Assembly (NCBI GenBank): GCA_021815785.1 | Contig: JAKAZS010000002.1 | Location: 248-64,247, forward strand | Source of the DNA: a bacterium | GTDB lineage: Bacteria; Cyanobacteriota; Vampirovibrionia; Obscuribacterales; JAKAZS01 | DNA: 64,000 bases | Reading direction: 5' to 3' | Part shown: piece by piece, positions 42,148 through 64,000 of the stretch | Layout of the letters: each line of letters opens with the position of its first letter | How positions within the stretch are numbered: position 1 is the first letter of the stretch | The notes under the pieces: generated by a model | Database searches by the model: none | What the model saw: the letters and a program-made list of their open reading frames with translations, nothing else | Told to the model about the DNA's origin: nothing | Translations under genes and position numbers: made by a program

Positions 42148-42702
42148 ATGAAATCAATGCCCAATTTAAGAAAAAGAGTAAATAGCGCTCAGTCATTGAT
42201 TGAATTAGCTACAGGGGTTACGGTTCTTATTCCCGTGGTGCTATTATTTTTTGACCTATCGTTAATTGTTATAGCGGTCCAAACCAATGAAAATATTGCT
42301 AAAAATGCGGCTCGGGTAGCTTCTATGGGTAGTCCCTTGCAATACCAAAGCCGTGCTCAATCCTCTGTTAACCAATCGGCTAACAACCATAGTGGCCCAA
42401 TTAGTAATATAAGTTTGGTTAGTGCATCGACTAATTTAACCCAAAATGATATTTTAACCTGGGAAAGTAGCGGTGGGCTAGTTGTCCACCAAAATGGCAG
42501 TCAGACTCTGCCCGGTATTGTAACGGTGACTACTCAAGTTCAAGTTAAACCCTTTATTATTTCCATTTTTTCGGGAGGCAATCCCTTAAGTTTTAAAGCC
42601 AGTCGCAGTTTCCCTTTTTCTAGTGTAATGTACGATCCAGTTCTTAATACTAATCCCTGGGCTCTGCCCGCAACCGGGGGAATTGGATCTGCACAGCAAT
42701 GA
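42148..42702 (+). CDS. TadE-like protein
   Basis: 'AQSLIELATGVTVLIPVVLLFFDLSLIVIAVQ...AKNAARVASMG' fits the TadE-like domain pattern. Confidence 0.6.
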   Translation: MKSMPNLRKRVNSAQSLIELATGVTVLIPVVLLFFDLSLIVIAVQTNENIAKNAARVASMGSPLQYQSRAQSSVNQSANNHSGPISNISLVSASTNLTQNDILTWESSGGLVVHQNGSQTLPGIVTVTTQVQVKPFIISIFSGGNPLSFKASRSFPFSSVMYDPVLNTNPWALPATGGIGSAQQ

Positions 42703-45409: not shown

Positions 45410-46681
45410 TTAGTTATTGGGGCTTTGAGTAATATTATCAGCAATTTCATTATTTTCATTGCAATCTAAATCATCAGGATTAAGCGTTCCATGAATCGGT
45501 TGATTTTTGGATGCACATAATTCATAAGGCATAGTATACGCTGTGGGCTTTTGTTCTACCGGAGCATTTTTAGGCGGGGCTTTTTTCTTTGGTTTTTTAT
45601 CTTCTTCTTCTTCTTCTTCCAATTGCTGGCGTAACTGCTGAAGAACACCATTAAGAGCTGGTTTAGCAAAAGAAAACCGAAAACCATAATATAATCTAAA
45701 GTCCATTCCGGATAAACCCACTACATCATTTGAATGCATATTATAGACCGGTTCAGCCCGAAAAAAAGCTAATAGCCCTGGAACAGCTTTAAAAATTTGT
45801 CGATCAATTTCAAAATCACAGATAAAGGAATAGTTGTTAGTCGGCAATAAGGCATTCACGCCAAACTGATTACGAAAATTCTGAACAAAAGTGCAGGTAT
45901 TAATAAACATCCAGCGACCACGTCGATAAATTGACCCAAACGTATAAAATGGATCAATTTCTCGATTGACACTATTCATAAACTGTTTACCCCGAAATTG
46001 GGTTAACACACTAACATAGGTTAAAAGGGCTGGCGTAAAATTATGATAATAGCTAACGCTCGGAATATAGTCAAAAACCGGATGAATGTTAGTTTCCCAT
46101 AATTCACGCATAAAAAAGCCTGTTTGAATATAACCTTTTTTATTTATATACTTCGTATTTTGGATACCACCGCCAGCAGAAAAAATATTGGTATCTAAAC
46201 TGTAATTTTTAATTAAGGTATCACGAATCATAAAGGCTGAGCTATATAATCTGGTGTTGGGAGTTAAAGCCCAGCCTACGGTAAAGTTAGGAAAAACCCG
46301 ATTAACATTATCAAAACTATTAACCGAAGCCAACCCCTTATTGGCAGCCGCCTTTTGCAATGGGGTCATTTTGGCATAAACCGCTGGGGACGGGTAATCA
46401 TGCCTTAAATATTCATATTTATTAGGCGTTTGATAAGGATTAGTCTCAATACGCATCGTTGATTCAACATAACCATTAAAATAAAGCCGCGCTGGCAATT
46501 TCTGCCATAAGCGAAATTGAAAATTCTGACCAAACAGTTGTTTGTCAGTGTTAGAAACAATAGGTGCTGAATCTGTTTTTAAAATAGTACTTTGTGCTAG
46601 ACAAGGACTGCCTAGCACAAAAATACTATATATTGTTAATATAAGTTGTAATAAATTTAATTGCTTCAATTTAATACACAA
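45410..46681 (-). CDS. Putative outer-membrane beta-barrel protein with charged C-terminal extension
   Basis: Signal 'LILTIYSIFVLGSPCLAQ', with alternating aromatic/hydrophobic strands ending in 'DFRLYYGFRFSF'. An 85 aa Glu/Lys/Pro-rich tail follows. The fold call is an inference. Confidence 0.45.
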   Translation of the reverse strand: MCIKLKQLNLLQLILTIYSIFVLGSPCLAQSTILKTDSAPIVSNTDKQLFGQNFQFRLWQKLPARLYFNGYVESTMRIETNPYQTPNKYEYLRHDYPSPAVYAKMTPLQKAAANKGLASVNSFDNVNRVFPNFTVGWALTPNTRLYSSAFMIRDTLIKNYSLDTNIFSAGGGIQNTKYINKKGYIQTGFFMRELWETNIHPVFDYIPSVSYYHNFTPALLTYVSVLTQFRGKQFMNSVNREIDPFYTFGSIYRRGRWMFINTCTFVQNFRNQFGVNALLPTNNYSFICDFEIDRQIFKAVPGLLAFFRAEPVYNMHSNDVVGLSGMDFRLYYGFRFSFAKPALNGVLQQLRQQLEEEEEEDKKPKKKAPPKNAPVEQKPTAYTMPYELCASKNQPIHGTLNPDDLDCNENNEIADNITQSPNN

Positions 46682-46688
46682 TTTTCAA

Positions 46689-47285
46689 TTATTTACTAGC
46701 TTCTCTTTTACCAGAGCTTGGCTTACTGTCAGCCAGTTCTTGATTTGGAGCTAAAATCTTGATAATTGGTTTGGTTATATCAACACCATCATCTAATACT
46801 TTTTGACCACCGGTAAAAATACCCGATCCATCAACCACTAAATCCAAGCCTTTTTCTTTAGCTACTTGAGTTGCAGCTTGCATAATTTTGGATGTAGCCA
46901 TTTGATTGGACGATTGAATTAATTGAGCTAAAGCTTGTTGCTTAGCACTTACTTCAGTTTGCAGGGTCTTTTGCATTTCTTGAATTTCGGATTCAGGTTT
47001 CTTGTCATCTTTAGCTTTTTGTAGTCTTTTATTAGCATCTTCAATATAGGCTTTTAATTGACTTTCGGCTTGACCTTTTAACGCTTCTGTTTCAGCAGCT
47101 TCAGGGCATACCATTTTCACTAAGGGAAGGCTAAAATAACCAACTTTGGCTTGAAATGGCTTAGCTGATTCATTAGCAGCTTGAGCTACAGATGAATTAC
47201 TGGCTGTAATTATAACTGAAAGAGCAACCATTGATAATACATTTTTGGTAATCATATTTAAATTAACTTTCATTTTTTTCCTCAT
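46689..47285 (-). CDS. skp: OmpH/Skp-family periplasmic chaperone
   Basis: Signal peptide, long Lys/Gln/Glu-rich helical arms, and the C-terminal 'AKEKGLDLVVDGSGIFTGG...VDITKPIIKIL' pattern typical of Skp. Confidence 0.65.
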   Translation of the reverse strand: MRKKMKVNLNMITKNVLSMVALSVIITASNSSVAQAANESAKPFQAKVGYFSLPLVKMVCPEAAETEALKGQAESQLKAYIEDANKRLQKAKDDKKPESEIQEMQKTLQTEVSAKQQALAQLIQSSNQMATSKIMQAATQVAKEKGLDLVVDGSGIFTGGQKVLDDGVDITKPIIKILAPNQELADSKPSSGKREASK

Positions 47286-47558
47286 ATTTGTTTTATTGAT
47301 GTATTGACATGAACTAATAAAATAAGTAGCTCATTCTTGGACTAAAGTCATTAAATGAACCTTAGCTTTAAATTATAACAGATGTGCCAAATGTATATAT
47401 CATTTTTTAATACTTGCAATAAATTTTAAAATTTCACGACAAAATAAAAGTTATTTAATTTAAGGAACAAAATAATTAAAAATGAGTCAAAACCTATTCA
47501 CTGTATCAATAATTAAATATATTTTTTTTGAATTAAACTTTCTTTATTTTTATATGTA

Positions 47559-47586
47559 TTGACTCATTAACTACTTCGTCTATAAT
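47559..47586 (+). promoter_or_regulatory. Candidate sigma-70 promoter for the giant gene (TTGACT-16 nt-TATAAT)
   Basis: Read directly: TTGACT at 47559-47564 and TATAAT at 47581-47586. AT-rich genomes produce such matches by chance. Confidence 0.4.
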
Positions 47587-47651
47587 TTACCTCTAAATGC
47601 CAGCGGAAACCTAAAAACAAGGCTTAATTCTTGCCTTCTTAATCCCAAACA

Positions 47652-47682
47652 AACTTCTTTCGCCAAAGAAGTTAGCTTTTTT
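47652..47682 (+). terminator. Terminator-like hairpin in the 5' leader (9-bp stem, 4-nt loop, then AGC + T6)
   Basis: aacttcttt-cgcc-aaagaagtt at 47652-47673, followed by agctttttt (T-run 47677-47682). It sits 4 nt before the GGAG (47686-47689) and 18 nt before the ATG at 47700. Confidence 0.35.
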
Positions 47683-47699
47683 GATGGAGAAAATTTAAT

Positions 47700-50600
47700 A
47701 TGTTTATAAATGCTGTCAATACTTTCAGTAAACTAATATTTACAGCTAAAACCAGGCCAAGACTTATTAGCCATCAAAAAGTTTTGAATATTATTATGAC
47801 ATTCACATTTGGGCTTACTGCGCTATTAATGCCACAGTCAGCCTTAGCTCAAAGTGTTAATGCTAACGCCATTACCCATGCAACGTATCAGCATCAACTG
47901 GCTAATGAAGCAACTCTTGTGCAATCTGCCAGTCAGACGCATATAACAAACGATCTAAACGCGATTTTACACAATGTGGTCAATAACAGCCTGGATTTAT
48001 CCTCAATCATTCACGATATATCAGCTTATTCAATAACAGGTTTTCACAATGTATCCATAACCCAGGGTGGACTTCATGATATTATAACCAATAACGCTGT
48101 TTTAACTCCGGCTGAGACTGTTGCTGTTATGCAGGTATTAAATCATAACAGTCAAAATTTAATTTTAAATACTAATGGCCAGGCCATTGGCGGTTACTTT
48201 AATCTAAGTACAGCTAACAGCAATTTAGGCGGATCAGTTTTAATTCCTAATAATGTAACAGCCATTGATAAAGCTAACAGTTTAAGTATTAATGGCGACT
48301 TAGCCAATTATGGAAACATCTATATAATCGGTAATGAAAAATCAGCGCTAATCGAAACGGCTGGAATTTACAACGCTCAATCCGGGTTAATTACGTCTAA
48401 TAATTTAAACTTAAATTTGGGTTCAGCAACTGGTTTTGTCCATGACACCAATGTTAATTTATTAAGTAATTCTAATTTTATTAACCAAGGTAATATTTCC
48501 AGTTCCGGTAATTTAAATATCCAGGCTCAAGGCGATATGATTAATAGCAATATTGTAACGAATACAACCAACGCTAATCTAACTGCCAATGACAATTTAA
48601 GCCTGGCAACAGGATCTGGCTATTTATATAATGACGGCATTATTAATGCAATTACGGGCAATATAAATATAAGTTCATCAGCTGATTTAAATTTAACTAA
48701 TATAAATGGAACCATTGGAGCTAATAATGGTTCCATTTATATTAATGACAGTAGTTTAAATAATATCAACAATATTTACTTAAATTTTGGCAATTATGCG
48801 GCTAGTGACATAAATATAAATGCGGTTAACAGTAACGTTTATGCTAATTATGTTAATTTAAATGGCGTCTTAAATATTAACGCCAATCAGTCCCATATAA
48901 TGGCTAATTCTAACAATTTATTAATTGGTAATCAAAATATCAATGGTGATCCTACCTATTTTAACCAAGGTAATATAACTATTACAGGAGCTATTGCAAC
49001 TAGTGGAAACCCCTTGGCCATTATTGCTAGCGGTAATATTTCAAGCAACAGTGGATCTTCAATAAGTACAGCATCATCAACAGGCAATGGTGGTAATATT
49101 TTACTAGTGGCTGGGGCTAATTTTATTCCAACTACTGGTGGGACAAGTGGTAGTACAAGTGGAACTGGAGATACCACGACTACGATCACTATTCAAGGTG
49201 GAAGTAATAGCGGTGGGGTAATTGATTTAAATGGTGGTAATGGAGGCTCTGGAGCCTTAACCGCTTTGACAACAGTTAGTACCAGTACAACAGCTGGCAG
49301 CCAAAGTGGTGGCAATATTGAAATGATTGCATTTGGTGGCAACAATCCCTTTGCAACTGTTACCGGCAGTGCAAGTCTACCAGGAACGGTAAACTTGCCT
49401 AATAGCATAACCATTGAAGCTGGTGGGGCTGGTTCTGGAAGTAATGGAAATTTAACTATTATGGCCGGAGCCTACGGTGGCACCTCGATCAATGGAACCA
49501 GCACCAATTTTACTTCAACTGGAGGTACTGGCGGTAATGGCTCAATCAATTTATATACGCAAGCTCCTGTCTTGAGTAGCAATAATTTTATTTCAGTATT
49601 AAATGGCGCTGTAACTGCTGGCAGTTTTATACCAGGACTAACTAATAATGCCTCAATTAGTTTTGGCAATATTACCACTTCGACTACCAGCGATGTTATA
49701 ATGGCTGGAAACAATGTAACTGTTGGTACAATCAGTAATTTAAATACGGTCAGTTCAAATTCAGACAGTGTTACAATTAATGCGGCTAATGGAACGTTAA
49801 CTCTTACCGGCAATGGGTCAGGATCAGTGGCCGTTGATGTTTCTGGAGCAGCATCAGTTAGTAGCGCTGGAGCAATGACTTTATCGGCACAAAAGATTGT
49901 CATGAATGCTTCTTCAACTGGCGTCATTATTTTGAACGCTAACGGTAATGGCAATAATCAAGCAGCGGGTTCGATAACGCTTAATCTATATGGCAATAAT
50001 CCTGTAAATATTGGGACTAGTAGTGGTGATTTAAGCTTAAGTGCAACTGGTTCAGCACTTGGTACTAGTTCATTTTACGATGGCGTAATTAGTATCAATG
50101 CTTATAATAGTATAAATGTCACCTCATCATCAGCTTTAAGCGTTGGAGCAAGCACTGGCGCTAGTAATTCAGCCGGTGGCAGTGTAAGCATAAATGCTGG
50201 CGTCAATAACCCTGGATTTGGTAATGTATTTATTAGCGGAGGCTTAAGTGTTAATGGCTTAAATTCTGGTCAAGGCGGCTTAGTTAATCTAAGTGAAAAT
50301 TCAAGTACAGCGTTTGTTATTGGTAGTAGCGCTACCAATAATGGCATAACCGGACTTTTAAGTGCTAATAGTGGTTTAACTACCGGCACTAATGCCGGTT
50401 CAATAAGTGTTATTAACAATGGCAGTGGGGGAATTAATTTATCTAGCTTAGCTAATATTAGCCTTACCACTTTTAATAATGGCGGCAGTTTAACTTTAAA
50501 TGCTAATGGCGGTGATTTAACACTACCGGCTGGAACGATAAATGTTGATGGAGTTGGAAGTAATAGTAATGGTGGCAATTTAGCCTTAATTGGCCAGAAT

Positions 50601-53600
50601 ATTAATTATGGTACAACTGCTGGGCTCAGTCTAACGGCTAACGCTACTGGCACAGGTAATGGTGGGAATATAACCGTAGATTCTTTAGCTTCTAACAGTA
50701 CTTTAAACATTGGACCCAGTGTTAACGATATTACGCTATCAGCCACGGGCGGTAGTTCTAGTTCGGCTTCGGGTAACGGCGGCAGTATCAATATTGGCAC
50801 AGCTGGAATATTAAATATTGCTAATGGATCAGTCAGTCTTGGTCCACTTGGGACAAATGGTAATGGTGGCAATTTAACTATTAATCAAACCGATTATTCA
50901 ATTGCTAACAATTTAACTATGACCGGAACTCTTAATCTTAATGGAATTGGTACCGGTAATGGCGGTAACTTTACCCTGTTAACTTCAAGTACCGAAACCG
51001 TAACCCTGCCTGGCACAATTAGCGCAAACGCAGGACTTACTGGAATAAATGCGGGAATTATAAATATTACCGATAATGGTTATGGTGGCAGTATTAATTT
51101 CAGCTCAGCATTAGCAATTTCAGCCAATGCCGTTGCCGGTGGTGGTGCTAGTAATGGTTTTAATAATTTAAACAACATATCGGTTATTGCTCCAAATACC
51201 ATTGTTAATTTCAATGGTGGAAGTATAAACTCTAATACATCAATTGGTGGTGGTTCAATAAATCTAAGTGCTGATAATATAATTAATTCTGGTTCAGCCA
51301 TTACTTTAAGCGCCAATTCCACAAATGGTAATGGTGGATATATTACAATGGCTACCACTAGTGGATTAGGGAATATAACTGTTGGCAGTGCTACTGGTAA
51401 TTTTCAGTTTAACGCAACCGGTGGAGGAACAACATCCGGTAGTGGTGGAACAGTATCTATTGATGCTGGGGGGAATTTAAATGTAGATGCTAATTATTTA
51501 AATGTCATTCCATCAGCTACTGCTACAGCTGGCAATGGTGGAAATATTACGCTAGCTACCGGAATTGCCAATAGTATTTCTGGCGGATCGCTTACAATTA
51601 CTGACAGTGCTACATCCGGAACAATTGGCTTAAATGCTAACGCAACTGGTACCGGTAATGGTGGAAGTATAAACATTACCGTTAATGACGCCCAAAATTA
51701 TATTAATAGCAACTTTGATAAACTGTTTACCCTAAATGTTAATACTAATATTTACGCCAATGGCGGAAGCTTGGGTGGCAATGGGGGCACTATCAACATT
51801 AACAATACTTACGATAGCAGTATCAACTTTGCTAATTCAGTTACCGTTAATGCCAATTCTCCTAATGGTAATGGTGGAGCAATTAATATTCAGTCAAGTC
51901 AATTCTCGCCACAAAACGCCGGTTCATTAGTCTTTGCCGGATCCAACACCCTAAGCGCTACTGGCGGCAGTAATGCTTTTACCAGTGGTGGGCAAATTAA
52001 TCTAGTAGCCAGCAACATAGTTAATAATGATTTAGTTAATCCATTAAATTTAAACGTTAGTGTAACAGGAAACTCGGCAACCGGTGGCAGTATTAATTTA
52101 AATACCTATGGTTCGCTTACAGTGGGCTCAAGTGGTGGTGATATTGCAATTAATGCCAGTACTGGTAATGTAAATGATACAGCCGGAACTGAAACCAGAC
52201 CCAATATTACGCTTACGGTTAATAATAATTTAGATCTTACGAGTGCTACATCAGCCTTTAATATTGCTGGCCTTGGAAATAATGTAAGCGGTGGTAACGT
52301 ATCTTTAACTCAAAACAATTCATCTAATGGACTGTTGTCCATAAATCAGGCTATTAATCTTAATAGTGCTGGCTCTGGTTATAGCCCAGGTAATATATCG
52401 TTATATGCCAATAATTTAATGACTATTAATAGTAACCTATCCGCTAGCTCACCAGCAAACACTACTAGCACTGTCGCTGGATCAATTACCATTAAAGACA
52501 ATAGTACAGCAAATTTAAATCTACAAAACGGTCTCATTTTTGATGTAAGTAATTTAAATTCTACTTCACAAGGTTCAGCTGGCAGTATTACTCTAACGGC
52601 CAATAACATAACTTATACCGGAACAAGTACCGCACCAGCCTTAAGCTTAAATGCTAACAGTGTAATTGGTTACGGTGGACAAATCTATTTAAATTCAAAT
52701 CAAGGTAATATTGCTATTGGCACCGGCAGTAATGACATAACCGCAAATATTTCCGGGTCTAATAATGCCCAAAATGGATCTTTATACCTAAACGCCTCTC
52801 AAGAAACCGTTAATATTGATCCTGCCGGCATTATTTCTAACCCTAACAGCAATTCTGGCGGTGTGGCCATTACCCTAAGTGGTTCAGGAAACACTTTAAA
52901 TATTGCCAGTTCAACTAATACTCCTTTAGCTGTGTCGGGAAATTACGGCTTTATCAGCCTTAACGTTACCGGTCAAATTAATATAGATGCCCCTTTAACC
53001 GCTAATAGTGCTTCAGGCAATGGTTCTAGCTCTATCACAATTAATGACCAACTGTCAGCTAATGCTTTATCTGGAATAAATTTTGGTGCCAATGCTAGCC
53101 TGCAAGCCACATCTACAACTTATGCCGGAACAATAAGTGTCAGCGCTCCCACAATCAATATATTGTCAGCACCTTTAATCATGAATGTAAACACAACAGG
53201 TAGTGGTTATGCTGGTGGAACCATTAAAATCAGTACATCTCAAGCTAATAGTAATTTAACCATTGGCAGTAGTACTGGTGATATTGAAATTAAGGCGCAA
53301 ACCGGATCTTCTACTGATAATTCACTAGAATTAGCTTCAACGGTTAATGTAACTGCTGGGGGTAATTTAACCGTCAATTCAAACTCTTTACTAGCTAATG
53401 GATTAGGCTCAAATGCCAATGGTGCAAATATAATTTTAGCTTCAGGTCACGTTTATCGTGGTGTTAGTGGATATCTTAGTTTACCTGGCAACATGAATAT
53501 TGGTAATACTTTGATTAATGGCGTTCTAAATGTAAGTGGCATTGGTTCAGGGAATGGGGGCAGTCTAAGTATTTATTCAGATTCAACGTCTGCGTTTACG

Positions 53601-56600
53601 ATTGGAACAAGTACCGGGATCAGTAATGGAGTAACTAACACGATAACAGCCAATTCAGGAAACACCAGTACCAGTGGCGGTAGTATTTATATCGCTAACT
53701 ATGGCAATGGTGGAATTACTGATAATAATTTAAGTGATATTGCTGTTGCCACAACTACTAACTCATCAGGAAGTATAAGTCTTAATGCCTTTATGGGTAA
53801 TTTAAATATGGTAACAACATCTACTAATGCTACACTAGCTTCTTCAAGTGGATCTAGCTCTAATGGTGGGGCAATAACTTTAATTGGCAATAATATTAAT
53901 GTGACCGGGTCCAATCCCTTAATTATAAGTTCGCAAGCTTTAGGTAATGGTGCTACTGGAGCCACAATAAAATTAGGAACAATAACGCCATCGGCCAATA
54001 TTACGATTGGTAATACAACTGGAACAACTAATGATATGGAAATTAATGCCAGTGTTGGTAATTCCGGTGATGTATCTACCGAAACCGGAGCCAATGTAAC
54101 TATTTCAGCTAGCGGCAATTTAACCATTAATCCCACCTATTTAAATACCCAAACAGTAGGTACCTTTGCTAATGGTTCTACGTTAAATCTTACGGCTGGA
54201 GCCAGTGAAAATACGGGCAATTTATTAATTAATGGCAATTTAAGTGTTAATAGCGGTAGCAGCACTGGTAATGGTGGAACGCTTAATTTAACGTCCAATA
54301 GCCTAATTCCTTTCGAAGTATCGCCATCATCTATCAGTACTAATGCGGTTATCGGCACCTTATCAGCTACCGGAATTGGTACAGGCGGAACGATATCAAT
54401 AACTAATAATGGGGGTAATATTTCCATTCCAGCTCTAACCAATCTTAGCTTAAGTCCAGGGAGCAATTTAAATCTTGCTGCTGCTGATAACATTATAAGT
54501 ATAGCTAGTGGGATTTTAAATCTATCTGGAACAGCCTCAAGTATTAATGGTGGCAATGTTAATATTTATGCTGGTACAATAGCTGTTACAGGATCTTCAG
54601 CTTTAACAATAAATACCACTGGTTATAATTCGGCTGGAACTAGTACTGGTGGTAATGTAGTCATTAATTTAACTAACACATTAAGTGGTTTAACCATCGG
54701 TAATAATGCGGGAAATGTGAGTATTAATACTACCGGTATTGATGCTGGAAATATAACCTTAACTACCGGCGGTAATTTAAATATAGATCAAGCTTATTTA
54801 CTAGCTTCAACTACAGCTACAGGAGTCTTTAATGGTAATGCTGGTAATATAGCTATTACGGCTGGAACTAATGGCAGTGGCAATTTAACCATCGCAGATG
54901 CCGGTAATCAGGCTATTAATCTAGCCGGTAATGCTGGTGGCAATGGCGGTAATTTTAGCGTAACGGCTCCAGGACTAATAACTTTACCAAGTAGCATTAC
55001 AGTATCCAGCGGGACAACGAGTGGCAATACTGGTCAGTTAGAAGTAATTGGCGGAAATGGTATTGCTTTTCCCTCAACAACTGCTATAACTTTATCAGCT
55101 AATGGTAGTTATCCTTTAAGTGGAAATACCAATATAATTATACTTTATGCAGGATCTGGCAATTTAAATCTAGACAATGGTGGAACTATATCGGCTCAGA
55201 ATTTAACAGCCAACGGGTTTAATATTTCGCCTAATTTATTTAATGTAAGTATTATTGCCCAGAACATTATTAATCCTAATAAATTATTAATCATTGATAC
55301 CAATGGAACAAGTACAGCTGTGGGCGCAAATGTAAACCTCGAATCACTTGCGTCAGGAGCTAATTTAATCATAGGCTCCGGTAATGGTGATATTGCCATT
55401 AATAACAGTGGCGCCAATAATAGTACCTCTTATTCTTCAATAACCAATATAATTTCGGCCGGCAGCTTAACGGTAAATACCACTAATTTAAATACAGTTA
55501 CAATTGACGCAACAGTTGGCTCAGCCTTTAGTAATGGAGCTAGCGTTACCTTAACCAGTGGAACTTTAAATAGCGGAAGTGGTATGATCATAAACGGTAA
55601 TTTAAATGTTAACGGTTTAAGCACAGGTAATGGTGGTATCATCAGCATTGCCAATTATAGTAATGCTGATATAAATATTAACGGGAATTTGTCAGCCAAT
55701 GCTAATTATGGTTCTGGAGTGGGACCAGGTGGTAATGGCGGCAGTATTACAGTTACCAATTATGGCAATGGCAATGTAAATTTCACGAATACAACATCAC
55801 AAGCTATAAATGCCGATTCTCCTTATGGTAATGCTGGGAACATAAACATTACAGCAAAACAAGGAAATGTAACTTTTGCTGCAAATACGCTAATTTCAGC
55901 TAATACTGGCAATTATAGTGATAAAGGCGTTCAAACCGGAAATGGCGGAAACATAACTATAGCTGGTAATGATTTAACCACCGCAAATGGCAATCTAGCT
56001 TTAGTTGCCAATGCAAATTCTGGCCAGGCAGGTTCAATCAGCATAAATACCTATGCTTCAACCAGTAATCTTACTGTTGGAAATGCATCGGGGAACATAG
56101 AGATTTCAGCTAACGGTGGAACAAATAATGCATATGGTGGCAGCAGTGAAACGGTTTCGGCTGGGGGAAATTTAACAGTTAATCCAGCTCAATTAATGCT
56201 TAGCAACTATAATAGTTTAAACTCCTCAGGTAGTGGTTTAAATGTAACTTTAGCCAGTGGTAATAACGGTATTAACCCTGGCAATTTATTAATCAATGGT
56301 TCATTAAATTTAAATAGTATTTCTGGTTCTGGAGATTCACTTACTTTAACCTCAAATAGCACAACAGCCTTTACTATTGGCGGAACCGGTTTAACCACCA
56401 ATGAAATTAGTGGATCAATTAATCTAGGCTATTTTGGCAGTTCTACTGGAGCTGCTGGCAGCTTAACAGTCAATAACTTTGGTACTGGTGGTATTACCTT
56501 AGCCAGCTTAAATAATTTAAACTTCACAAGCTCCAATCAGGCTGGCAGTTTAACATTGAATGCCTCTAATGGAAATATAACTTTGCCTGGTGGCAACTTA

Positions 56601-59600
56601 AATTTAACGGGCAATAATATAATTATTTCAGGATCAACTAATTCCGGAACTGGTGGCAGCGTTTCGTTGACTGGGCAAGCAATAAATGTAACAGGATCAA
56701 CAGCTTTAACTTTAAATGTTAGTAATTCAGGCAATAACAGTCAGGTCTATTACACATCAAACATAAATATAAACATTGATGGTTATGGGAATTCTTTAAC
56801 TATTGGCAATGCAGCCAATGATATTGCCATAATCGCCAATACTGGATCGAGTTACCAAACGCTACTTAATCCAAATTTAACGACTTCAGCCAATACATCA
56901 TCCGTAAATATTAACTTATTTGACTATTATGGCAATTTAAGCTTAAACGGCAATGGTTTAAGCAACACAATCGATTCCTTGAGCCAAGCTGTTAACACTA
57001 CCTATACTGACTTAAATGTTAATTATAACAACCAAAGCTCAGCGACAACAGCTAACAGCTATTTAGGCGGTAATTTAACTATTTCTGGACCAATTATAAC
57101 TTATGGTGGCAATATAAATATTAATGCCTACACTGATACTAGTGTCAATTCTTCTCCATTAACTATCACTGGCTTATTACAGGCAAATGGTTATGAATCA
57201 GCGCAAATTAACATTAATAACTATGGCAATTCTGGCATAACGCTTAACAGTGCTACCATTAATGACACAAGTTATAAATATTCAAATCCCCTAATAAACA
57301 TTAATGCCAATTATACAGACTCATCATCAGCCATTACTTTCAATAATTCAATTTTAAATGTAAACTCATACTCTGGCGTTGGCTACGAACCAAGTTTTAA
57401 TAACGGTAATGAAGTAAGCCTAGCGGCTGGCAACATTATTATAACTAATGGGGCTAATTCTTCAATATTAGCTAATGGTCTTGGCGTTGAACCAGGTCAA
57501 AGCATATCTATCGTAACTCAATCCGGCAATTTAAATATTGGCACAGGTAATGGACAGCTGTCTTTATCAGCTACAGGTGGATCAGTTAATAGTATTTTCT
57601 CCAATGGTGGTTCAATTAGCATTCAGGATCTAACCGGAAATATCACTTTAGCTCCCAGTGGCATTACGGCAAGTAGTCTAGCGCAAAATGGCAATGGTGC
57701 CGCCTATAATCTTCAGGCCGGCGTAAATACCAAAAGCAATAACAATTATCAAGGTCTTCAGGCTAACTTAATAATTTCAGGATCTCTAAGCGCTAATGGT
57801 AATGGTATTGGTAATGGTGGTTCTATAAAATTAGATTCAACCTCAACAAATTCATTTACCACCGGCTTAACAGCTACCCCAATCAATGGGATTGAAGGAA
57901 GTATATCTGTTAATGCCGGACTTAATGGCGGAAATGCCGGTAGTATTGTCATTAATAATTATGGCAGTGGTGGTATAACCATTACCAATACTACTGATTT
58001 AATAGCTTCAGCAGCTTTAGGAAATCAAGGCAGTATTACCTTAACGGCTAATTACAATTACTATAGTGCTGCAGTTACCTTTGTCAACTCTGGCACAATT
58101 AATTTGAGCGCACCATCAGGCAGTAATGGTAATGGCGGTAATTTAACCATAAATGCTAACAGTATTAACTTAAACAGTCCTGGTTTAACGGTGAACTTAA
58201 ATGGTAATGGCAGTGGTAGTGGCGGTAGCTTTACATTCTTCTCTAGCGGTGGTTTGTTTAACAATGGGTTATTGACCGTGAATGCTAACGGCGGGGTAAC
58301 TGGCGATGGTGGTGATATTTACATATACCAAAACGGTCAAAATTACGAAAATTTAATCGTTGGTTCAGCCAGTGGCGATATTAATATCAGTGCTAACGGT
58401 GGATCAACATCGGGTAATGCTGGTAGCGTAAATTTATATAATAATTTAACCTACTCTAGCCCAGCTCAATCAATAGCTATAAATCCCAGTAATTTAAGTT
58501 TAACAGCAATATCTGGCAATGGTGGCTCGTTATCCATAAATGCTAGCAATATTCTGATTACAGGTGGCTTAAACTTAAATGGCGCTGGCACGGGTAATGG
58601 TGGCAATCTAACTATAACTCAAACCAGCAACACTTCATTCTCGGTTGATGGTGGAGCTGGAATTGCTAACGGGATTCAAGGTAATGTAACGGCTAATGGA
58701 GGTAGTACCAGTGGTAATGCAGGTATTATTACCTTTAATTTAAGTAATTCAGCTGGATTAAACCTTGCTTCAGCTACAGCTATCCAGGCCAGTTCAAGCA
58801 ATGGTAATGGTGGAAACATCTCCTTAACTAATGTTAATGGTACTATAACTATTCCAACTGGAACTATTAACTTAAATGGTACAGGCTCATCTGGTAACGG
58901 TGGATATTTATATATAAGCAGTGCTGATCTGAACGTTACTGGACCCAGTGGGACTTTAAACGTTAATGCTAATGGTGCTGGTAATGGCAATGGTGGTAAT
59001 GTGGTAATTAATCTTACCGATCCGTTAAATAGCTCACTAACTGTTGGCTCAAACAACGATAATTTAGCCATTTCAGCAAATGGAGGCAGTTCAGGTAATA
59101 ACAAAGTTAATGCTGGCTCTGTATCGCTTACAGCAACTAATATAACAGTAGCAATGTCATCATTAAGCCTAGCAACACTTTCAACAAATGGCAATGGTGG
59201 TAGCTTAACTTTAAGCAATACCATATCCAATATTGGAGCGATAAATTTAACCGGTAATATCAACCTAGCAGGTACTGGCAATGGCAATGGTGGTAATTTC
59301 ACCATAGATGACAGTAGCACGTCAGCTTTTAATGCGCCAACGAAAATCAACGTGGATTCAGGACTAGCTGGTGGCAAGGGTGGAGTTATTAGCCTGAACC
59401 AATATGGCTCTGGTGGTATTAATTTTGCTTCAGCTGTAAATATTACGGCCGATTCAATTAATGCAAATGCTGGTAACATAACCATTAATTCAATTGAATC
59501 TAATGGATTTGCCCAAACTATCGTTTACAGCCCCATAACTTTTACCGGTGGTGGAACAATTTCAGCCAGTGCTACCTTAGGTAGCAGTATTAGTGGTAAT

Positions 59601-62600
59601 GGCGGTAATATTGACGTCTATGGTTATGATTTAACGATAACTGGTTCGACCCTAACCTTAAATGCTAATGCAAGCTCAAACAATGGTAATGGTGGTTTAA
59701 TGAATATTGTGGCTAACGATCCAACAACTGCTGGAGCTGTTACTATTGGTAGTGTAGCTGGCGATCTGGTTATTTCAGCTACTGGTGGTAATGCAGGGAA
59801 CCAAGCCATGGGTAATAACATCACTAATGGAGGAAGTGTTAATATATCATCAGCTAATAATGTTACGATTAATCCAGGATCATTAAGCCTAAACGGAACC
59901 GGCACAGGTGGCTTTTTATTTGCCTCCGCTGGAGTACAGGCTCTATCCAGTAACAGCTACCAATTCACTTCTGGCAATGTGTTAATAACGGGAAGCCTAA
60001 ATTTTTCGGGCTATGCCTTTAATTATGGCGGAACAATTAATATTCAATCTCGTTCCGCCACAGCTTTTAATCTTGGTGGCAGTATTTTAACTAACGGTCT
60101 TGAGGGAAATATAAATGTAACAGGTGGAACCGGTGGAACTGTTAATTTAACTAATTATGGATCCGGTGGTCTGGTTATCAATCCAAGTGATTTAAGCATT
60201 AATGGTACATACAGTAGCGGTGGATTCCTTGGTTTATATGGATATACTCCCAACGTATACAATCCTCTTGGGGGTGGTTCATCAAGCCCACGACCAGCTG
60301 GTGGTTTTGAAGGAGCAGTTACCATAACTAATGGCACGCTTAATGACAGTGGTTATAACAATGTCTATTTATCAGCTCAATATTCAACTACACCTGGCAG
60401 TATAACTATTGACGGCAGTTATCTTAATTTAAGTGGCAGTGGCATCAATCCCTTAACAATTATGGCTAATGGTGCGATCCAGGCTAATGGCACCAGTATA
60501 AATATCAATTTAAATGGAGCTGGTAGCAATTTAACTATCGGCAACAGTTTAGGGGATTTGTCCATTGTCGATAACGGTGGAACTTACATTAATAGTTCTG
60601 CTGGTACTGCTGGCAATGTCAGTATAAGTACTGGTGGCAGTTTAACTGTAAACACTACCAATCTTCAACTTAATAGCACAACTGTACCAATAGCTAATTT
60701 AACATATACATCGATTCCAGCTGGGTCACTAACTTTATCAGCTGGTAATAATGGTAATGGCAACTTACTAATTAATGGATCGTTAAATATAAATTCATTT
60801 CAAACTATTGCTAATACATATTACAACGCTTTAACAGGTGGAACAATTAATTTAACGAGTAATAGCAACAGCCCATTTGTTGTTGCCAATACAGCTACAA
60901 TTAATGGCATAACCGGCAGTATTAATGTGAATGGTCTCGGTGGGAGTGCAAGTGCTGGATCTATTACCATTACCAATAATGGCAATGGTGGCATTGATGT
61001 TACTAATCCTTCTTACATTATGGCAAGTGGCTATAACGGTGGCTTCGTAACCCTGGGCGGTATTCCCAATAACAGCTATACTTCTACACCAAATTACTAT
61101 GGCGTATATGGACCAATTATTAATAATAAGCCAACTGGTCCAGTCACTATTGCCAGTGGAACCCTTAATGTAAGCAGTAATGATTATGGACAGAATTACT
61201 TTTTAAACAATATTACAGCACCAATTTATGGTATTGAAAACGGTGGCAATGTAAATATTCTAGCTACTAATTTAAACATAACTGGTAGCAGTAATTTAAA
61301 TATATTAGCTAACGGTGGTGGTTTTGGCAATGGGGGAACAATTAGTATCACCTCAACAGCTCGAGGTGATAATTTGAATATTGGATCAGCAGTCAATGAT
61401 CTTAATTTATCGGCTACAGCTGGCAGCCCTGGACTCGACAATTCGGCGTCGTCAAGTATTACAGCCGGCAGTATTAATATTTATGCTGGCAGCAATATTA
61501 TTGTAAATTCAGCCAATTTAAATGTTGCTAATAATTTAACATCAACATCAACAAATACTTCGCAAATTAACGGTGGTAGTATAGGACTATATGCCGGCTT
61601 TGTTCCTCAAGTACATACCAGTTATAATGATGTCAACGTTTATAATGGCAATCTAATTATTACGGGTAATCTTAATGTTAATGGAGCTTACGAGGGTAGC
61701 GGCGGGAATTTAAATTTATACTGGAATTCGGCCAATGTATTTCAGTTAGATTCAGCTACTACTCCTAATAATGGTACAACTGGAATTTTAACAGCTAATT
61801 CCGAATATGGTTCAAGCAGCGTAAACAGTTTCAGGAGTAATGGTGGTAGTATTACCCTGGTTAATATGACTAATTTCAACTATGGTGGAATCAATATTGC
61901 TAATGCAAATGATTTATCAGCTATAGCTTCTGACGGCAATGGTGGCAATATTACAATCGATAATAACTATCAAGGCGGAAATATAACTATCGGCAGTGGT
62001 ATATTATCAGTTAACGCAACTAGTTCACCTAGTACAAACTATTATGGTGGCAATATCGTTATTGGTGGACAAAGTTCAACTAGACAGATGTCCTATCAAA
62101 ATATCAATATAAATGGAATCTTAAGCCTAACCGCTAACAGTTCAAACAATAATGCAATTGCTGGCTCCATTTCGCTGACTGGATACAATATAAATGTAAA
62201 TTCAGTTACAGGAAGCTTATTTTTAAGTGCTTTGGGCCAAGTGATTAGCTCAAATGTTAACACTATTAATATTGAAGCTGCCAGTCCAAATGCCAGTTTA
62301 AATATTGGGACAGGATTTGATAATATATCCGTAGCGGTCACGCCAAACCAATTCTCAACAAACGGACATTACGTATTTTCACCAAACATAAGTATACTTT
62401 CCGGTGGCAATTTAACCGTTAATCCAGCTGGCATAATATTAGCCAACTATAATAACCAAAACACAATTAATTTAACTCTAGCAGCTGGTGCCCCAATATT
62501 TAGCAATGACGCTTCAGTTGGACTAGGTAACTTGGTTATAACCGGAAATTTAAATTATGGAGCCGGATCCAACATTTACCTTATCAGTAATTCCAATAAT

Positions 62601-64000
62601 CCATTTGACATTGGTTCTTCAACTTTACCTTATAATGGCATCGAAGGCAGTATTACCGGAAGCTCACCAATAATTGGTGGTAATGGTGGCAGTGTTTATG
62701 TAACGAATCTAGGTATTGGCGGAATAACACTAAACTCAGACACAAATATTAATGTAGCAAGTTACGGTGGTAATGGTGGCACTGTAGAATTAGGCTATGT
62801 TCGCGACATAATTCCTTTTTATAGTAATCTCGATATTGATACTACTAATGGTCAGCTAACTTTGCCAGGTGGTAATATTAATACTAGTGGAACGGGCTTT
62901 AATTCAAACAATGGTCAGATAATTTTGGCTGGCAGTAATATAAACACTTCTAATACTGCCAATTTAGAATTAGTTAATAATGGCTATACGACAAATAATA
63001 ATTTAACGTCTGGTGCCTATAATGTTCAAATAATTGATAACAGTTCAACTGGTACTTTTAACATTGGAACTAGTTCTGGTCAAATCAGTATTCAGGCAAA
63101 TTTAAATGAAACTAATAATGGATCAGCAAGTTCCAGTAATTCTATCGAAATATCTACGCAAAACAACTTAACAGTTGATCCAAGCGCAATTCAACTTGTC
63201 ATTTCGGGAACTAATGCTAATCAAGCTGCGTTATCCTTATATTCAGCCAAAAATTTACTTATCACTCATCCGCTTAATTTAACTGGATTGGGCAATGGTC
63301 TTGGTGGAGCAGTTACTTTATTATCTAATAGCTCAAGTCCCTTTACCGTAGGGGGATCTTCATTAATCAACGGTATTCAAGGATCAATTAATGTTAGCGG
63401 AGGAAATAGTGGAGCTGCTGGTTCAATTTATATAGCTAATTATGGCAGTGGTGGCATGGTTGTAAACAATCCTTCAACAAATCTAATACTAACTACCAAT
63501 AATGGTAATGGAGGAATTTTAACTTTAGAAACCCAAAATTATTCCAGTTCAAACCAAACTCAGTCGCTAGCCAGTTTAACTATTAATACGGGAAGTAGTG
63601 GTGATAGTTTAAACGTTAATGGCAGTTATGGTAACGGCGGAACCATAAATATTAATACAGCCAGTTTAATTGTAAGTGGCGGTCCCTTAACCATAAATGC
63701 TATAGGAGGCAGTAACTCAGGCATTAATTCTTATGTAACCGGTGGTACCATAAATATCCTATCCAGTTTAGCGACTTCCAACCTTACCATTGGTAATGGG
63801 AATGGTAGCCTTGAACTAAACACTAACAGTCCAACTTATGCAAATGCCAATGGTGGCACAGTTGTTGTAATCGCCGGCGAAAATCTTAGTGTAAATAGCA
63901 GTTTTTTATATATTAACCCTGGAGCTAATAGTGGAAATGGGGGCAACATTATATTATTTGCTGGCGCTAGTGGTTACGGCAATCTAACAGTTAACGGCAA
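47700..64000 (+). CDS. Giant secreted repeat protein (beta-solenoid/adhesin-like), 5' part only, continues beyond the window
   Basis: ATG at 47700, with an in-frame TGA at 47682 and a GGAG Shine-Dalgarno upstream. I translated by hand continuously to ~51000 and spot-checked to 64000 without meeting a stop. There is a long signal leader ending 'LLMPQSALA|QSV', followed by Gly/Asn/Ser/Thr-rich repeats with recurring GNGG(N/S/T) boxes. It is absent from the ORF track, presumably because no stop lies inside the window. Confidence 0.9.
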   Translation, partial: MFINAVNTFSKLIFTAKTRPRLISHQKVLNIIMTFTFGLTALLMPQSALAQSVNANAITHATYQHQLANEATLVQSASQTHITNDLNAILHNVVNNSLDLSSIIHDISAYSITGFHNVSITQGGLHDIITNNAVLTPAETVAVMQVLNHNSQNLILNTNGQAIGGYFNLSTANSNLGGSVLIPNNVTAIDKANSLSINGDLANYGNIYIIGNEKSALIETAGIYNAQSGLITSNNLNLNLGSATGFVHDTNVNLLSNSNFINQGNISSSGNLNIQAQGDMINSNIVTNTTNANLTANDNLSLATGSGYLYNDGIINAITGNINISSSADLNLTNINGTIGANNGSIYINDSSLNNINNIYLNFGNYAASDININAVNSNVYANYVNLNGVLNINANQSHIMANSNNLLIGNQNINGDPTYFNQGNITITGAIATSGNPLAIIASGNISSNSGSSISTASSTGNGGNILLVAGANFIPTTGGTSGSTSGTGDTTTTITIQGGSNSGGVIDLNGGNGGSGALTALTTVSTSTTAGSQSGGNIEMIAFGGNNPFATVTGSASLPGTVNLPNSITIEAGGAGSGSNGNLTIMAGAYGGTSINGTSTNFTSTGGTGGNGSINLYTQAPVLSSNNFISVLNGAVTAGSFIPGLTNNASISFGNITTSTTSDVIMAGNNVTVGTISNLNTVSSNSDSVTINAANGTLTLTGNGSGSVAVDVSGAASVSSAGAMTLSAQKIVMNASSTGVIILNANGNGNNQAAGSITLNLYGNNPVNIGTSSGDLSLSATGSALGTSSFYDGVISINAYNSINVTSSSALSVGASTGASNSAGGSVSINAGVNNPGFGNVFISGGLSVNGLNSGQGGLVNLSENSSTAFVIGSSATNNGITGLLSANSGLTTGTNAGSISVINNGSGGINLSSLANISLTTFNNGGSLTLNANGGDLTLPAGTINVDGVGSNSNGGNLALIGQNINYGTTAGLSLTANATGTGNGGNITVDSLASNSTLNIGPSVNDITLSATGGSSSSASGNGGSINIGTAGILNIANGSVSLGPLGTNGNGGNLTINQTDYSIANNLTMTGTLNLNGIGTGNGGNFTLLTSSTETVTLPGTISANAGLTGINAGIINITDNGYGGSINFSSALAISANAVAGGGASNGFNNLNNISVIAPNTIVNFNGGSINSNTSIGGGSINLSADNIINSGSAITLSANSTNGNGGYITMATTSGLGNITVGSATGNFQFNATGGGTTSGSGGTVSIDAGGNLNVDANYLNVIPSATATAGNGGNITLATGIANSISGGSLTITDSATSGTIGLNANATGTGNGGSINITVNDAQNYINSNFDKLFTLNVNTNIYANGGSLGGNGGTININNTYDSSINFANSVTVNANSPNGNGGAINIQSSQFSPQNAGSLVFAGSNTLSATGGSNAFTSGGQINLVASNIVNNDLVNPLNLNVSVTGNSATGGSINLNTYGSLTVGSSGGDIAINASTGNVNDTAGTETRPNITLTVNNNLDLTSATSAFNIAGLGNNVSGGNVSLTQNNSSNGLLSINQAINLNSAGSGYSPGNISLYANNLMTINSNLSASSPANTTSTVAGSITIKDNSTANLNLQNGLIFDVSNLNSTSQGSAGSITLTANNITYTGTSTAPALSLNANSVIGYGGQIYLNSNQGNIAIGTGSNDITANISGSNNAQNGSLYLNASQETVNIDPAGIISNPNSNSGGVAITLSGSGNTLNIASSTNTPLAVSGNYGFISLNVTGQINIDAPLTANSASGNGSSSITINDQLSANALSGINFGANASLQATSTTYAGTISVSAPTINILSAPLIMNVNTTGSGYAGGTIKISTSQANSNLTIGSSTGDIEIKAQTGSSTDNSLELASTVNVTAGGNLTVNSNSLLANGLGSNANGANIILASGHVYRGVSGYLSLPGNMNIGNTLINGVLNVSGIGSGNGGSLSIYSDSTSAFTIGTSTGISNGVTNTITANSGNTSTSGGSIYIANYGNGGITDNNLSDIAVATTTNSSGSISLNAFMGNLNMVTTSTNATLASSSGSSSNGGAITLIGNNINVTGSNPLIISSQALGNGATGATIKLGTITPSANITIGNTTGTTNDMEINASVGNSGDVSTETGANVTISASGNLTINPTYLNTQTVGTFANGSTLNLTAGASENTGNLLINGNLSVNSGSSTGNGGTLNLTSNSLIPFEVSPSSISTNAVIGTLSATGIGTGGTISITNNGGNISIPALTNLSLSPGSNLNLAAADNIISIASGILNLSGTASSINGGNVNIYAGTIAVTGSSALTINTTGYNSAGTSTGGNVVINLTNTLSGLTIGNNAGNVSINTTGIDAGNITLTTGGNLNIDQAYLLASTTATGVFNGNAGNIAITAGTNGSGNLTIADAGNQAINLAGNAGGNGGNFSVTAPGLITLPSSITVSSGTTSGNTGQLEVIGGNGIAFPSTTAITLSANGSYPLSGNTNIIILYAGSGNLNLDNGGTISAQNLTANGFNISPNLFNVSIIAQNIINPNKLLIIDTNGTSTAVGANVNLESLASGANLIIGSGNGDIAINNSGANNSTSYSSITNIISAGSLTVNTTNLNTVTIDATVGSAFSNGASVTLTSGTLNSGSGMIINGNLNVNGLSTGNGGIISIANYSNADININGNLSANANYGSGVGPGGNGGSITVTNYGNGNVNFTNTTSQAINADSPYGNAGNINITAKQGNVTFAANTLISANTGNYSDKGVQTGNGGNITIAGNDLTTANGNLALVANANSGQAGSISINTYASTSNLTVGNASGNIEISANGGTNNAYGGSSETVSAGGNLTVNPAQLMLSNYNSLNSSGSGLNVTLASGNNGINPGNLLINGSLNLNSISGSGDSLTLTSNSTTAFTIGGTGLTTNEISGSINLGYFGSSTGAAGSLTVNNFGTGGITLASLNNLNFTSSNQAGSLTLNASNGNITLPGGNLNLTGNNIIISGSTNSGTGGSVSLTGQAINVTGSTALTLNVSNSGNNSQVYYTSNININIDGYGNSLTIGNAANDIAIIANTGSSYQTLLNPNLTTSANTSSVNINLFDYYGNLSLNGNGLSNTIDSLSQAVNTTYTDLNVNYNNQSSATTANSYLGGNLTISGPIITYGGNININAYTDTSVNSSPLTITGLLQANGYESAQININNYGNSGITLNSATINDTSYKYSNPLININANYTDSSSAITFNNSILNVNSYSGVGYEPSFNNGNEVSLAAGNIIITNGANSSILANGLGVEPGQSISIVTQSGNLNIGTGNGQLSLSATGGSVNSIFSNGGSISIQDLTGNITLAPSGITASSLAQNGNGAAYNLQAGVNTKSNNNYQGLQANLIISGSLSANGNGIGNGGSIKLDSTSTNSFTTGLTATPINGIEGSISVNAGLNGGNAGSIVINNYGSGGITITNTTDLIASAALGNQGSITLTANYNYYSAAVTFVNSGTINLSAPSGSNGNGGNLTINANSINLNSPGLTVNLNGNGSGSGGSFTFFSSGGLFNNGLLTVNANGGVTGDGGDIYIYQNGQNYENLIVGSASGDINISANGGSTSGNAGSVNLYNNLTYSSPAQSIAINPSNLSLTAISGNGGSLSINASNILITGGLNLNGAGTGNGGNLTITQTSNTSFSVDGGAGIANGIQGNVTANGGSTSGNAGIITFNLSNSAGLNLASATAIQASSSNGNGGNISLTNVNGTITIPTGTINLNGTGSSGNGGYLYISSADLNVTGPSGTLNVNANGAGNGNGGNVVINLTDPLNSSLTVGSNNDNLAISANGGSSGNNKVNAGSVSLTATNITVAMSSLSLATLSTNGNGGSLTLSNTISNIGAINLTGNINLAGTGNGNGGNFTIDDSSTSAFNAPTKINVDSGLAGGKGGVISLNQYGSGGINFASAVNITADSINANAGNITINSIESNGFAQTIVYSPITFTGGGTISASATLGSSISGNGGNIDVYGYDLTITGSTLTLNANASSNNGNGGLMNIVANDPTTAGAVTIGSVAGDLVISATGGNAGNQAMGNNITNGGSVNISSANNVTINPGSLSLNGTGTGGFLFASAGVQALSSNSYQFTSGNVLITGSLNFSGYAFNYGGTINIQSRSATAFNLGGSILTNGLEGNINVTGGTGGTVNLTNYGSGGLVINPSDLSINGTYSSGGFLGLYGYTPNVYNPLGGGSSSPRPAGGFEGAVTITNGTLNDSGYNNVYLSAQYSTTPGSITIDGSYLNLSGSGINPLTIMANGAIQANGTSININLNGAGSNLTIGNSLGDLSIVDNGGTYINSSAGTAGNVSISTGGSLTVNTTNLQLNSTTVPIANLTYTSIPAGSLTLSAGNNGNGNLLINGSLNINSFQTIANTYYNALTGGTINLTSNSNSPFVVANTATINGITGSINVNGLGGSASAGSITITNNGNGGIDVTNPSYIMASGYNGGFVTLGGIPNNSYTSTPNYYGVYGPIINNKPTGPVTIASGTLNVSSNDYGQNYFLNNITAPIYGIENGGNVNILATNLNITGSSNLNILANGGGFGNGGTISITSTARGDNLNIGSAVNDLNLSATAGSPGLDNSASSSITAGSINIYAGSNIIVNSANLNVANNLTSTSTNTSQINGGSIGLYAGFVPQVHTSYNDVNVYNGNLIITGNLNVNGAYEGSGGNLNLYWNSANVFQLDSATTPNNGTTGILTANSEYGSSSVNSFRSNGGSITLVNMTNFNYGGINIANANDLSAIASDGNGGNITIDNNYQGGNITIGSGILSVNATSSPSTNYYGGNIVIGGQSSTRQMSYQNININGILSLTANSSNNNAIAGSISLTGYNINVNSVTGSLFLSALGQVISSNVNTINIEAASPNASLNIGTGFDNISVAVTPNQFSTNGHYVFSPNISILSGGNLTVNPAGIILANYNNQNTINLTLAAGAPIFSNDASVGLGNLVITGNLNYGAGSNIYLISNSNNPFDIGSSTLPYNGIEGSITGSSPIIGGNGGSVYVTNLGIGGITLNSDTNINVASYGGNGGTVELGYVRDIIPFYSNLDIDTTNGQLTLPGGNINTSGTGFNSNNGQIILAGSNINTSNTANLELVNNGYTTNNNLTSGAYNVQIIDNSSTGTFNIGTSSGQISIQANLNETNNGSASSSNSIEISTQNNLTVDPSAIQLVISGTNANQAALSLYSAKNLLITHPLNLTGLGNGLGGAVTLLSNSSSPFTVGGSSLINGIQGSINVSGGNSGAAGSIYIANYGSGGMVVNNPSTNLILTTNNGNGGILTLETQNYSSSNQTQSLASLTINTGSSGDSLNVNGSYGNGGTININTASLIVSGGPLTINAIGGSNSGINSYVTGGTINILSSLATSNLTIGNGNGSLELNTNSPTYANANGGTVVVIAGENLSVNSSFLYINPGANSGNGGNIILFAGASGYGNLTVNG

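Follow-up and report, generated by a model that had tools for sequence, protein, structure and literature searches.

The last quarter of the DNA analysed here (a window of 64,000 nucleotides, positions 248 to 64,247 of contig JAKAZS010000002.1, assembly GCA_021815785.1) is occupied by the 5' 60 % of a genuine chromosomal gene of 8,998 codons; the bacterium is AT-rich and Melainabacteria-like (related to Obscuribacterales). The product of the gene is proposed to be a Sec-exported giant beta-helical surface fibre or adhesin, with a C-terminal domain that probably couples it to the outer membrane and with a neighbouring outer-membrane barrel as the best candidate for the coupling; a rough probability of 0.65 is given to this reading. 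As judged from sequence similarity, the gene is a member of a large, phylum-restricted and unnamed family that has its own N- and C-terminal domains.

An original prediction, made from the DNA letters, had placed the start of a giant open reading frame (ORF) at ATG 47700, with an in-frame TGA at 47682 and a GGAG at 47686-47689. Direct reading of the sequence has found these three elements in place, with no further start codon from the TGA up to the ATG. Translation from 47700 to 63998, the check that the prediction itself had named, gave 5,433 codons with zero stops. The base composition of this stretch corresponds to a stop probability of 0.069 per codon, that is, one stop expected per ~15 codons, and the probability of zero stops across 5,433 codons is ~1e-168, which excludes a chance origin. 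The five remaining frames of the same stretch contain 186-676 stops, and the GC content at codon positions 1, 2 and 3 of the giant ORF (0.38/0.50/0.26) is a coding signature. The frame was missing from the program-made ORF list because it runs off the end of the window, as had been guessed, and a single gene cut by the window end does fill its last quarter, of which gene a complete copy of 8,998 amino acids (aa) exists elsewhere. The composition of the visible protein was also described correctly: Asn (16.8 %), Gly (15.2 %), Ser (13.6 %), Thr (10.7 %), Ile (9.6 %), Leu (8.4 %) and Ala (8.3 %) make up 83 % of its residues, with Asp at 2.1 %, whereas Cys (0), Trp (1), Arg (10) and Lys (22) are absent or almost absent. 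The features of the 5' region and the ORF are the following:

47559..47586, + strand: candidate sigma-70-type promoter TTGACT-16-TATAAT, 114 nt 5' of the ATG, matching 11 of 12 consensus positions (consensus match only)
47686..47689, + strand: GGAG Shine-Dalgarno-like site, 10 nt 5' of the start codon, by direct sequence reading
47700..64000, + strand: giant ORF, codons 1-5,433 of 8,998, with 0 stops, a coding signature and near-identical copies in other assemblies

Four ORFs of 102-269 aa are found on the minus strand within the giant gene (49472-49954, 50270-50578, 53699-54556 and 58676-59485), and in one antisense frame just 186 stops occur over 16.3 kb. These antisense ORFs appear to be side products of codon bias in the sense frame, not genes.

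With the exact sequence of the neighbouring OmpH-like protein as query, the same locus was found on 14 contigs. Two other assemblies (ENA ERZ27233573 k141_358734, 86 kb, and GCA_027399115.1 DAHYZG010000020.1, 59 kb) have the giant gene called complete, at a length of 8,998 aa, and span all 27 kb of it; its real end was rightly expected beyond the window, and should lie ~10.7 kb past it. The full product has an estimated mass of ~885 kDa, the isoelectric point of the visible part is near 4, and 8,998 aa is the greatest length seen in the family (the longest among the 150 matches listed has 7,404 aa). The original prediction had worried that this stretch might be an assembly artefact, and an artefact or a decayed, non-functional gene would find some support in the contigs that end inside the gene (2.0, 2.0 and 5.9 kb into it), which mark the gene as hard to assemble, and in the window's own contig, perhaps only 66.9 kb long, which would cut the gene. 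However, the window differs from five other assemblies by 1-3 mismatches across 2.0-9.6 kb of the giant gene, and two assemblies cover it entirely. Tandem DNA repeats were not found in the gene with Tandem Repeats Finder, and all dispersed DNA repeats are ≤60 nt long with 60-87 % identity; collapse or expansion of repeats is thus unlikely. Together with the contrast in stops between frames, the strong codon-position bias and more than 1,000 homologues at 30-41 % identity, these data make an artefact or a decayed gene extremely improbable, and the worry has not been borne out. The intergenic region between the OmpH-like gene and the giant gene (47286-47699) measures 415 nt between the two start codons compared with 416 in L001, and this 1-nt difference is the only length difference noticed among the assemblies.

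The visible protein begins with an export signal, continues with a conserved domain and then consists of a long repetitive shaft:

47700..47849, + strand: Sec-type signal peptide, aa 1-50, with a basic n-region, hydrophobic VLNIIMTFTFGLTALLM, then ALA|QS, as read from the sequence
47988..49739, + strand: conserved N-terminal family domain, aa ~97-680, predicted beta-helix
49947..64000, + strand: shaft, aa 750-5433, with 19 complete copies of a diverged ~222-aa module plus 1 that is cut, recognised with a module hidden Markov model (HMM)

Signal peptides also begin the homologues P0003, P0005, P0006 and P0011. The best-aligned stretches of the relatives correspond to query residues ~97-680 in the 150 matches listed, and the N-terminal domain contains the invariant motifs GDPT[YF][FY]N, LAIIASGNI and VAGANF, with G365, D366 and P367 among its invariant columns. 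An AlphaFold2 model of residues 52-720, built with an alignment of 27 homologues, reached a mean predicted local distance difference test score (pLDDT) of 82 and a predicted template modelling score of 0.83, with almost all of the chain in short beta strands; the domain is therefore predicted, with a confident model, to fold as a beta-helix. In the shaft the modules stand end to end with recurrent GNGGN[IL] motifs, the copies are mutually 30-43 % identical and the smallest offsets are 220-262 aa; the module HMM gave 20 contiguous matches (E 1e-12 to 1e-57).

An exhaustive HMMER search for relatives of the giant protein, in which matches were counted as cluster representatives, has revealed 1,115 of them at E≤1e-3, of which 281 reach E≤1e-30. 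Lengths of 3,000-7,400 aa are common among them, and in all 150 matches listed the best alignment falls over the N-terminal domain; the closest among these is P0054 (6,886 aa, 41 % identity, 12 copies of the ~222-aa module). The named relatives come almost all from metagenome-assembled genomes (MAGs) of Candidatus Obscuribacterales or Melainabacteria, one match labelled Mycobacterium sp. (also a MAG) being an exception, and they carry no Pfam domain or functional name, with the sole exception of P0045, labelled 'adhesin HecA-like repeat protein' by its source. The window's protein has the N-terminal domain and the three motifs by which the family is recognised, and a search with the last 400 aa of the visible part against GTDB representative genomes found only a 39 % relative (L007). 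That the original prediction could not place the protein in a named family agrees with the searches: Pfam gave no family for aa 1-2000 at E≤0.1, NCBIfam gave no model above threshold, and a PDB sequence search with the giant protein and with the family profile gave no significant match. Nothing relevant was found in the literature on giant proteins or adhesins of Melainabacteria or Obscuribacterales. Tandem arrays of paralogues have also been observed, with four genes of 1,245-2,050 aa in L011 (3680-24662) and two in L008 (3758-16195).

All 11 full-length relatives checked (10 distinct sequences: P0005, P0006, P0011, P0044, P0045, P0049, P0054 and proteins of L027, L030 and L060) end in a conserved, non-repetitive domain of ~190 aa (alignment A1), with identities of up to 60-85 % between paralogues, for which Pfam and PDB searches gave no match. 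By analogy with every full-length relative checked, this domain should also be present in the window's protein. When the C-terminal-domain profile was run in a word-indexed search, all proteins returned were short, among them 18 stand-alone C-terminal-domain proteins; one protein of L008, of 276 aa, is likewise a stand-alone form with little beyond this domain. The word-indexed protein search did not return the 8,998-aa protein itself, relatives longer than 1,748 aa or the long source proteins of A1, and proteins of great length appear to be absent from the word index, which can hide giant families.

A surface location and an adhesin role are what we infer for the giant protein because of its signal peptide, composition, confident beta-helix model, size and analogy with FHA and autotransporter passengers. 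In the mechanism envisaged, the Sec system would export a protein with almost no Cys, Trp, Lys or Arg, which would probably form a single long parallel beta-helix once outside the cell, the N-terminal domain being followed by dozens of ~222-aa modules. Taking ~20 residues and 4.8 Å per coil, the rod would be ~0.2 micrometres long, a size that would fit a surface fibre or an adhesin contacting surfaces or other cells. The conserved C-terminal domain would probably link the fibre to the outer membrane; in the simplest proposal it would engage the adjacent 12-stranded barrel, while the Skp-like protein would chaperone the periplasmic intermediate. The two neighbouring genes concerned are the following:

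46689..47285, - strand: OmpH/Skp-like periplasmic chaperone gene, 198 aa (PF03938, 41 bits vs a cut-off of 32), divergent from the giant gene
45410..46618, - strand: predicted outer-membrane beta-barrel (the putative partner), 402 aa; after a signal peptide come 12 long strands, then a C-terminal helix and a disordered K/E/P tail

The AlphaFold2 model of the barrel (pLDDT 80, 12 long strands) matched 175 outer-membrane barrels of the PDB at E≤1e-3. The best target-normalised template modelling scores (TM-scores) were those of the 12-stranded KdgM (0.71) and NanC (0.66), and further structural matches included the autotransporter barrels NalP, EspP and EstA, and also FapF. No match to the barrel was found in Pfam (E≤1) or NCBIfam. 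Its own family comprises 132 matches, all unannotated, and the named ones come from Obscuribacterales or Melainabacteria except for two MAGs labelled as cyanobacteria.

The association of the barrel with the giant family was examined in a metagenome sample of 56 loci (623 kb in total) retrieved with the GDPTYFN motif. A barrel homologue is present in 7 of these loci (6 distinct sequences), and in 4/16 of those of at least 15 kb. It adjoins the family member directly and divergently in L027, L028, L030 and L044 and lies directly downstream in L010 and L060, and the trio of OmpH, barrel and family member seen in the window recurs in L027, L028 and L030. A barrel homologue likewise lies within 10 kb of family members in the window, L008, L010 and L011; P0011, P0044 and P0006 have one at this distance, P0049 does not. 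The association is recurrent, probably enriched, and not obligate.

Several observations weigh against a coupled surface fibre. Apart from P0045, no family member has a Pfam, NCBIfam or PDB sequence match or an annotation; the visible part of the protein reaches codon 5,433 and its presumed C-terminal domain would lie within the last 3,565 codons; most family loci contain no barrel; in all four loci centred on barrel homologues, family members are absent within 10 kb; in L012 an OmpH-barrel pair resembling that of the window stands alone, with no giant gene; and the barrel may simply be a porin, given that the small porins KdgM and NanC reach its best TM-scores. The 7/56 count, the four barrel-centred loci, the lone pair of L012 and the porin likeness would speak for another explanation, in which the giant protein still serves as a surface fibre while the barrel and OmpH genes are unrelated housekeeping outer-membrane genes (a porin and its chaperone) and export or anchoring follows another route. 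Against this explanation stand at least five unrelated loci where the barrel directly adjoins family members, in several orientations, and a density of ~1 barrel gene per 100 kb (6 distinct genes in the 623 kb centred on the family). This density is ~10 times the expectation, an estimate that assumes a handful of copies per genome and that for this reason counts as a further caution about the coupled fibre. Unrelated neighbours are considered rather unlikely. The coupled fibre would leave room for a bolder proposal, in which the C-terminal domain, the separate 12-stranded barrel and the Skp-like chaperone would form an undescribed export or anchoring route in Melainabacteria, in effect either a 'split autotransporter' or an anchor of the PorP/SprF kind outside Bacteroidota; a part for the barrel in export or anchoring is a proposal, and this route is put forward as a tentative and unlikely possibility.

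The 47 kb upstream are ordinary chromosome, with genes for HemN, RecD2, MurT, NAD kinase, the Suf operon, pyruvate kinase, DAHP synthase, an M1 aminopeptidase and others. A phage tail fibre was considered as an identity of the giant protein and rejected, given this chromosomal housekeeping context and the insignificance of the tailspike matches. Further proteins of the window have weak family matches or none. A 184-aa protein (42148-42702, +) has a TadE-like N-terminus (PF07811, E 0.048, sub-threshold), and just upstream of its gene a 756-aa protein rich in Asn, Thr and Pro (39848-42118, +) has one N-terminal membrane helix and no family; both products may be Tad/Flp-pilus pseudopilin-like, and they are encoded 5 kb upstream of the giant gene. 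A 732-aa protein (18105-20303, -) has a signal-like N-terminus and C-terminal tetratricopeptide repeats (TPR), an unusual combination with its sub-threshold matches to retropepsin-type aspartyl proteases (PF09668, E 0.0013; PF13975, PF13650). The 747-aa product of 37248-39491 (-) matches no family above threshold, with a weak PHP-domain match (E 0.0055) around HLHSKYSDG. TPR-repeat proteins often adjoin family members or the barrel in other loci (L009, L013, L015, L030 and L060, with a Ser/Thr kinase-TPR fusion in L060), possibly by chance, these genomes being rich in such proteins.

Among non-photosynthetic bacteria, the closest relatives of cyanobacteria are the Melainabacteria, and to our knowledge almost nothing is known of their cell surface. 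The new element is the family itself, with more than 1,000 clusters and yet no name, domain model or solved relative, since giant proteins are not rare and a beta-helical, adhesin-like giant in a MAG would not surprise specialists. Its defining N- and C-terminal domains offer annotators two new domain families, and the recurrent barrel neighbour allows a new route of export or anchoring to be tested. If the link to the barrel is true, a new way of placing very large proteins on the outer membrane would be at hand; if it is false, this would be one more giant adhesin-like protein, a class already known as common.

Among known systems, the exoproteins of two-partner secretion (TpsA, type Vb, such as FHA, HMW1, EtpA and CdiA-like proteins) share with the giant protein the Sec signal peptide, a very long, Asn/Gly-rich parallel beta-helix with almost no Cys, and a probable surface or adhesive role. 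If the giant protein were itself a TpsA, it would be exported by an Omp85 protein (TpsB) and might carry a C-terminal toxin. A Foldseek search with the N-terminal model placed TpsA secretion domains (those of EtpA and HMW1), autotransporters and tailspikes at the top of its PDB neighbours, and the homologue P0045, whose source label points to HecA, passes TIGR01731 (the 20-residue repeat of FHA) with 21.2 bits vs a cut-off of 18, the window's protein itself giving no match to this model. However, the Foldseek matches are insignificant (E 0.7-2.1, TM 0.2-0.38), and the TPS domain PF05860 was found neither in the window's protein (aa 1-2000, E≤0.1) nor in six homologues. No ShlB, POTRA or Bac_surface_Ag family, and so no TpsB gene of the Omp85/POTRA type, was present among the window ORFs scanned (some smaller ORFs being left out) or in the neighbour tables examined, and no Omp85/POTRA model fits the neighbouring barrel, which has 12 strands. 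The giant family has N- and C-terminal domains of its own instead, and a CdiA-like toxin was rejected because the C-terminal domain is conserved between paralogues and not polymorphic like CdiA toxins. Membership of the TpsA group is on these grounds very unlikely.

Classical autotransporters (type Va; pertactin, Ag43, EspP, NalP) also combine a beta-helical passenger with a 12-stranded outer-membrane barrel, and Skp-type chaperones aid their periplasmic transit. The barrels of NalP, EspP and EstA are among the structural matches of the neighbouring barrel, although porins match it at least as well. The difference is that the barrel is here a separate gene and not the C-terminus of the passenger: the autotransporter barrel PF03797 is absent from six full-length homologues, which end in the non-barrel domain of ~190 aa.

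In arrangement, the locus resembles SprB of Flavobacterium johnsoniae, a giant filament that a type IX secretion system (T9SS) secretes and that is bound by SprF, a PorP-like barrel encoded by the adjacent gene (PMC9143113). In both cases a giant repetitive surface filament with a Sec signal plus a conserved C-terminal domain has a barrel encoded beside the cargo gene. The resemblance is one of arrangement only. No match to the T9SS C-terminal domain or PorP_SprF models of NCBIfam was obtained with P0005, P0011, P0045 or the barrel, the barrel again giving nothing in Pfam, and the T9SS is known only in Bacteroidota (PMC9143113; PMC10202324). As no sequence model of autotransporters or of SprB-SprF matches, both cases are taken as resemblance and not as membership. 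The parallel also bears on function, because the fibre could be a structural or motility element (an S-layer, a sheath, or a surface filament for gliding or swimming such as SprB or SwmB) and not an adhesin. The similar size and repetitive beta-rich build, the conserved C-terminal domain next to an outer-membrane barrel as in SprB-SprF (PMC9143113), and the tandem arrays of paralogues (four in L011), which suggest an abundant structural family, would agree with such a function. On the other side, there is no T9SS signal or PorP/SprF model match and motility genes were not seen beside the giant gene; the data obtained here do not separate adhesion from motility. A structural or motility function is regarded as distinctly unlikely, and a surface adhesin is preferred.

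RTX adhesins have no N-terminal signal peptide and carry calcium-binding nonapeptides. The RTX/LapA-type adhesins and the giant proteins of Omnitrophota share with the window's protein the size class and a presumed role in cell-surface contact. Pfam gave no match to PF00353 (GGxGxD) in aa 1-2000, the protein starts with a Sec-type signal peptide and its Asp content is low (the 2.1 % given above); the same search did not find the repeats of chlamydial polymorphic membrane proteins (PF02415). UniProtKB holds more than 41,000 proteins above 5,000 aa (PMC11573180), and giant proteins have been proposed to mediate adhesion in a paper on Omnitrophota that makes no mention of Melainabacteria (bioRxiv 10.1101/2023.11.21.568195). 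Although no TPS domain was found in its first 2,000 aa and no autotransporter barrel in six full-length homologues, the giant protein would, by analogy, work like FHA or the passengers of autotransporters: a long beta-helical rod carried to the cell surface.

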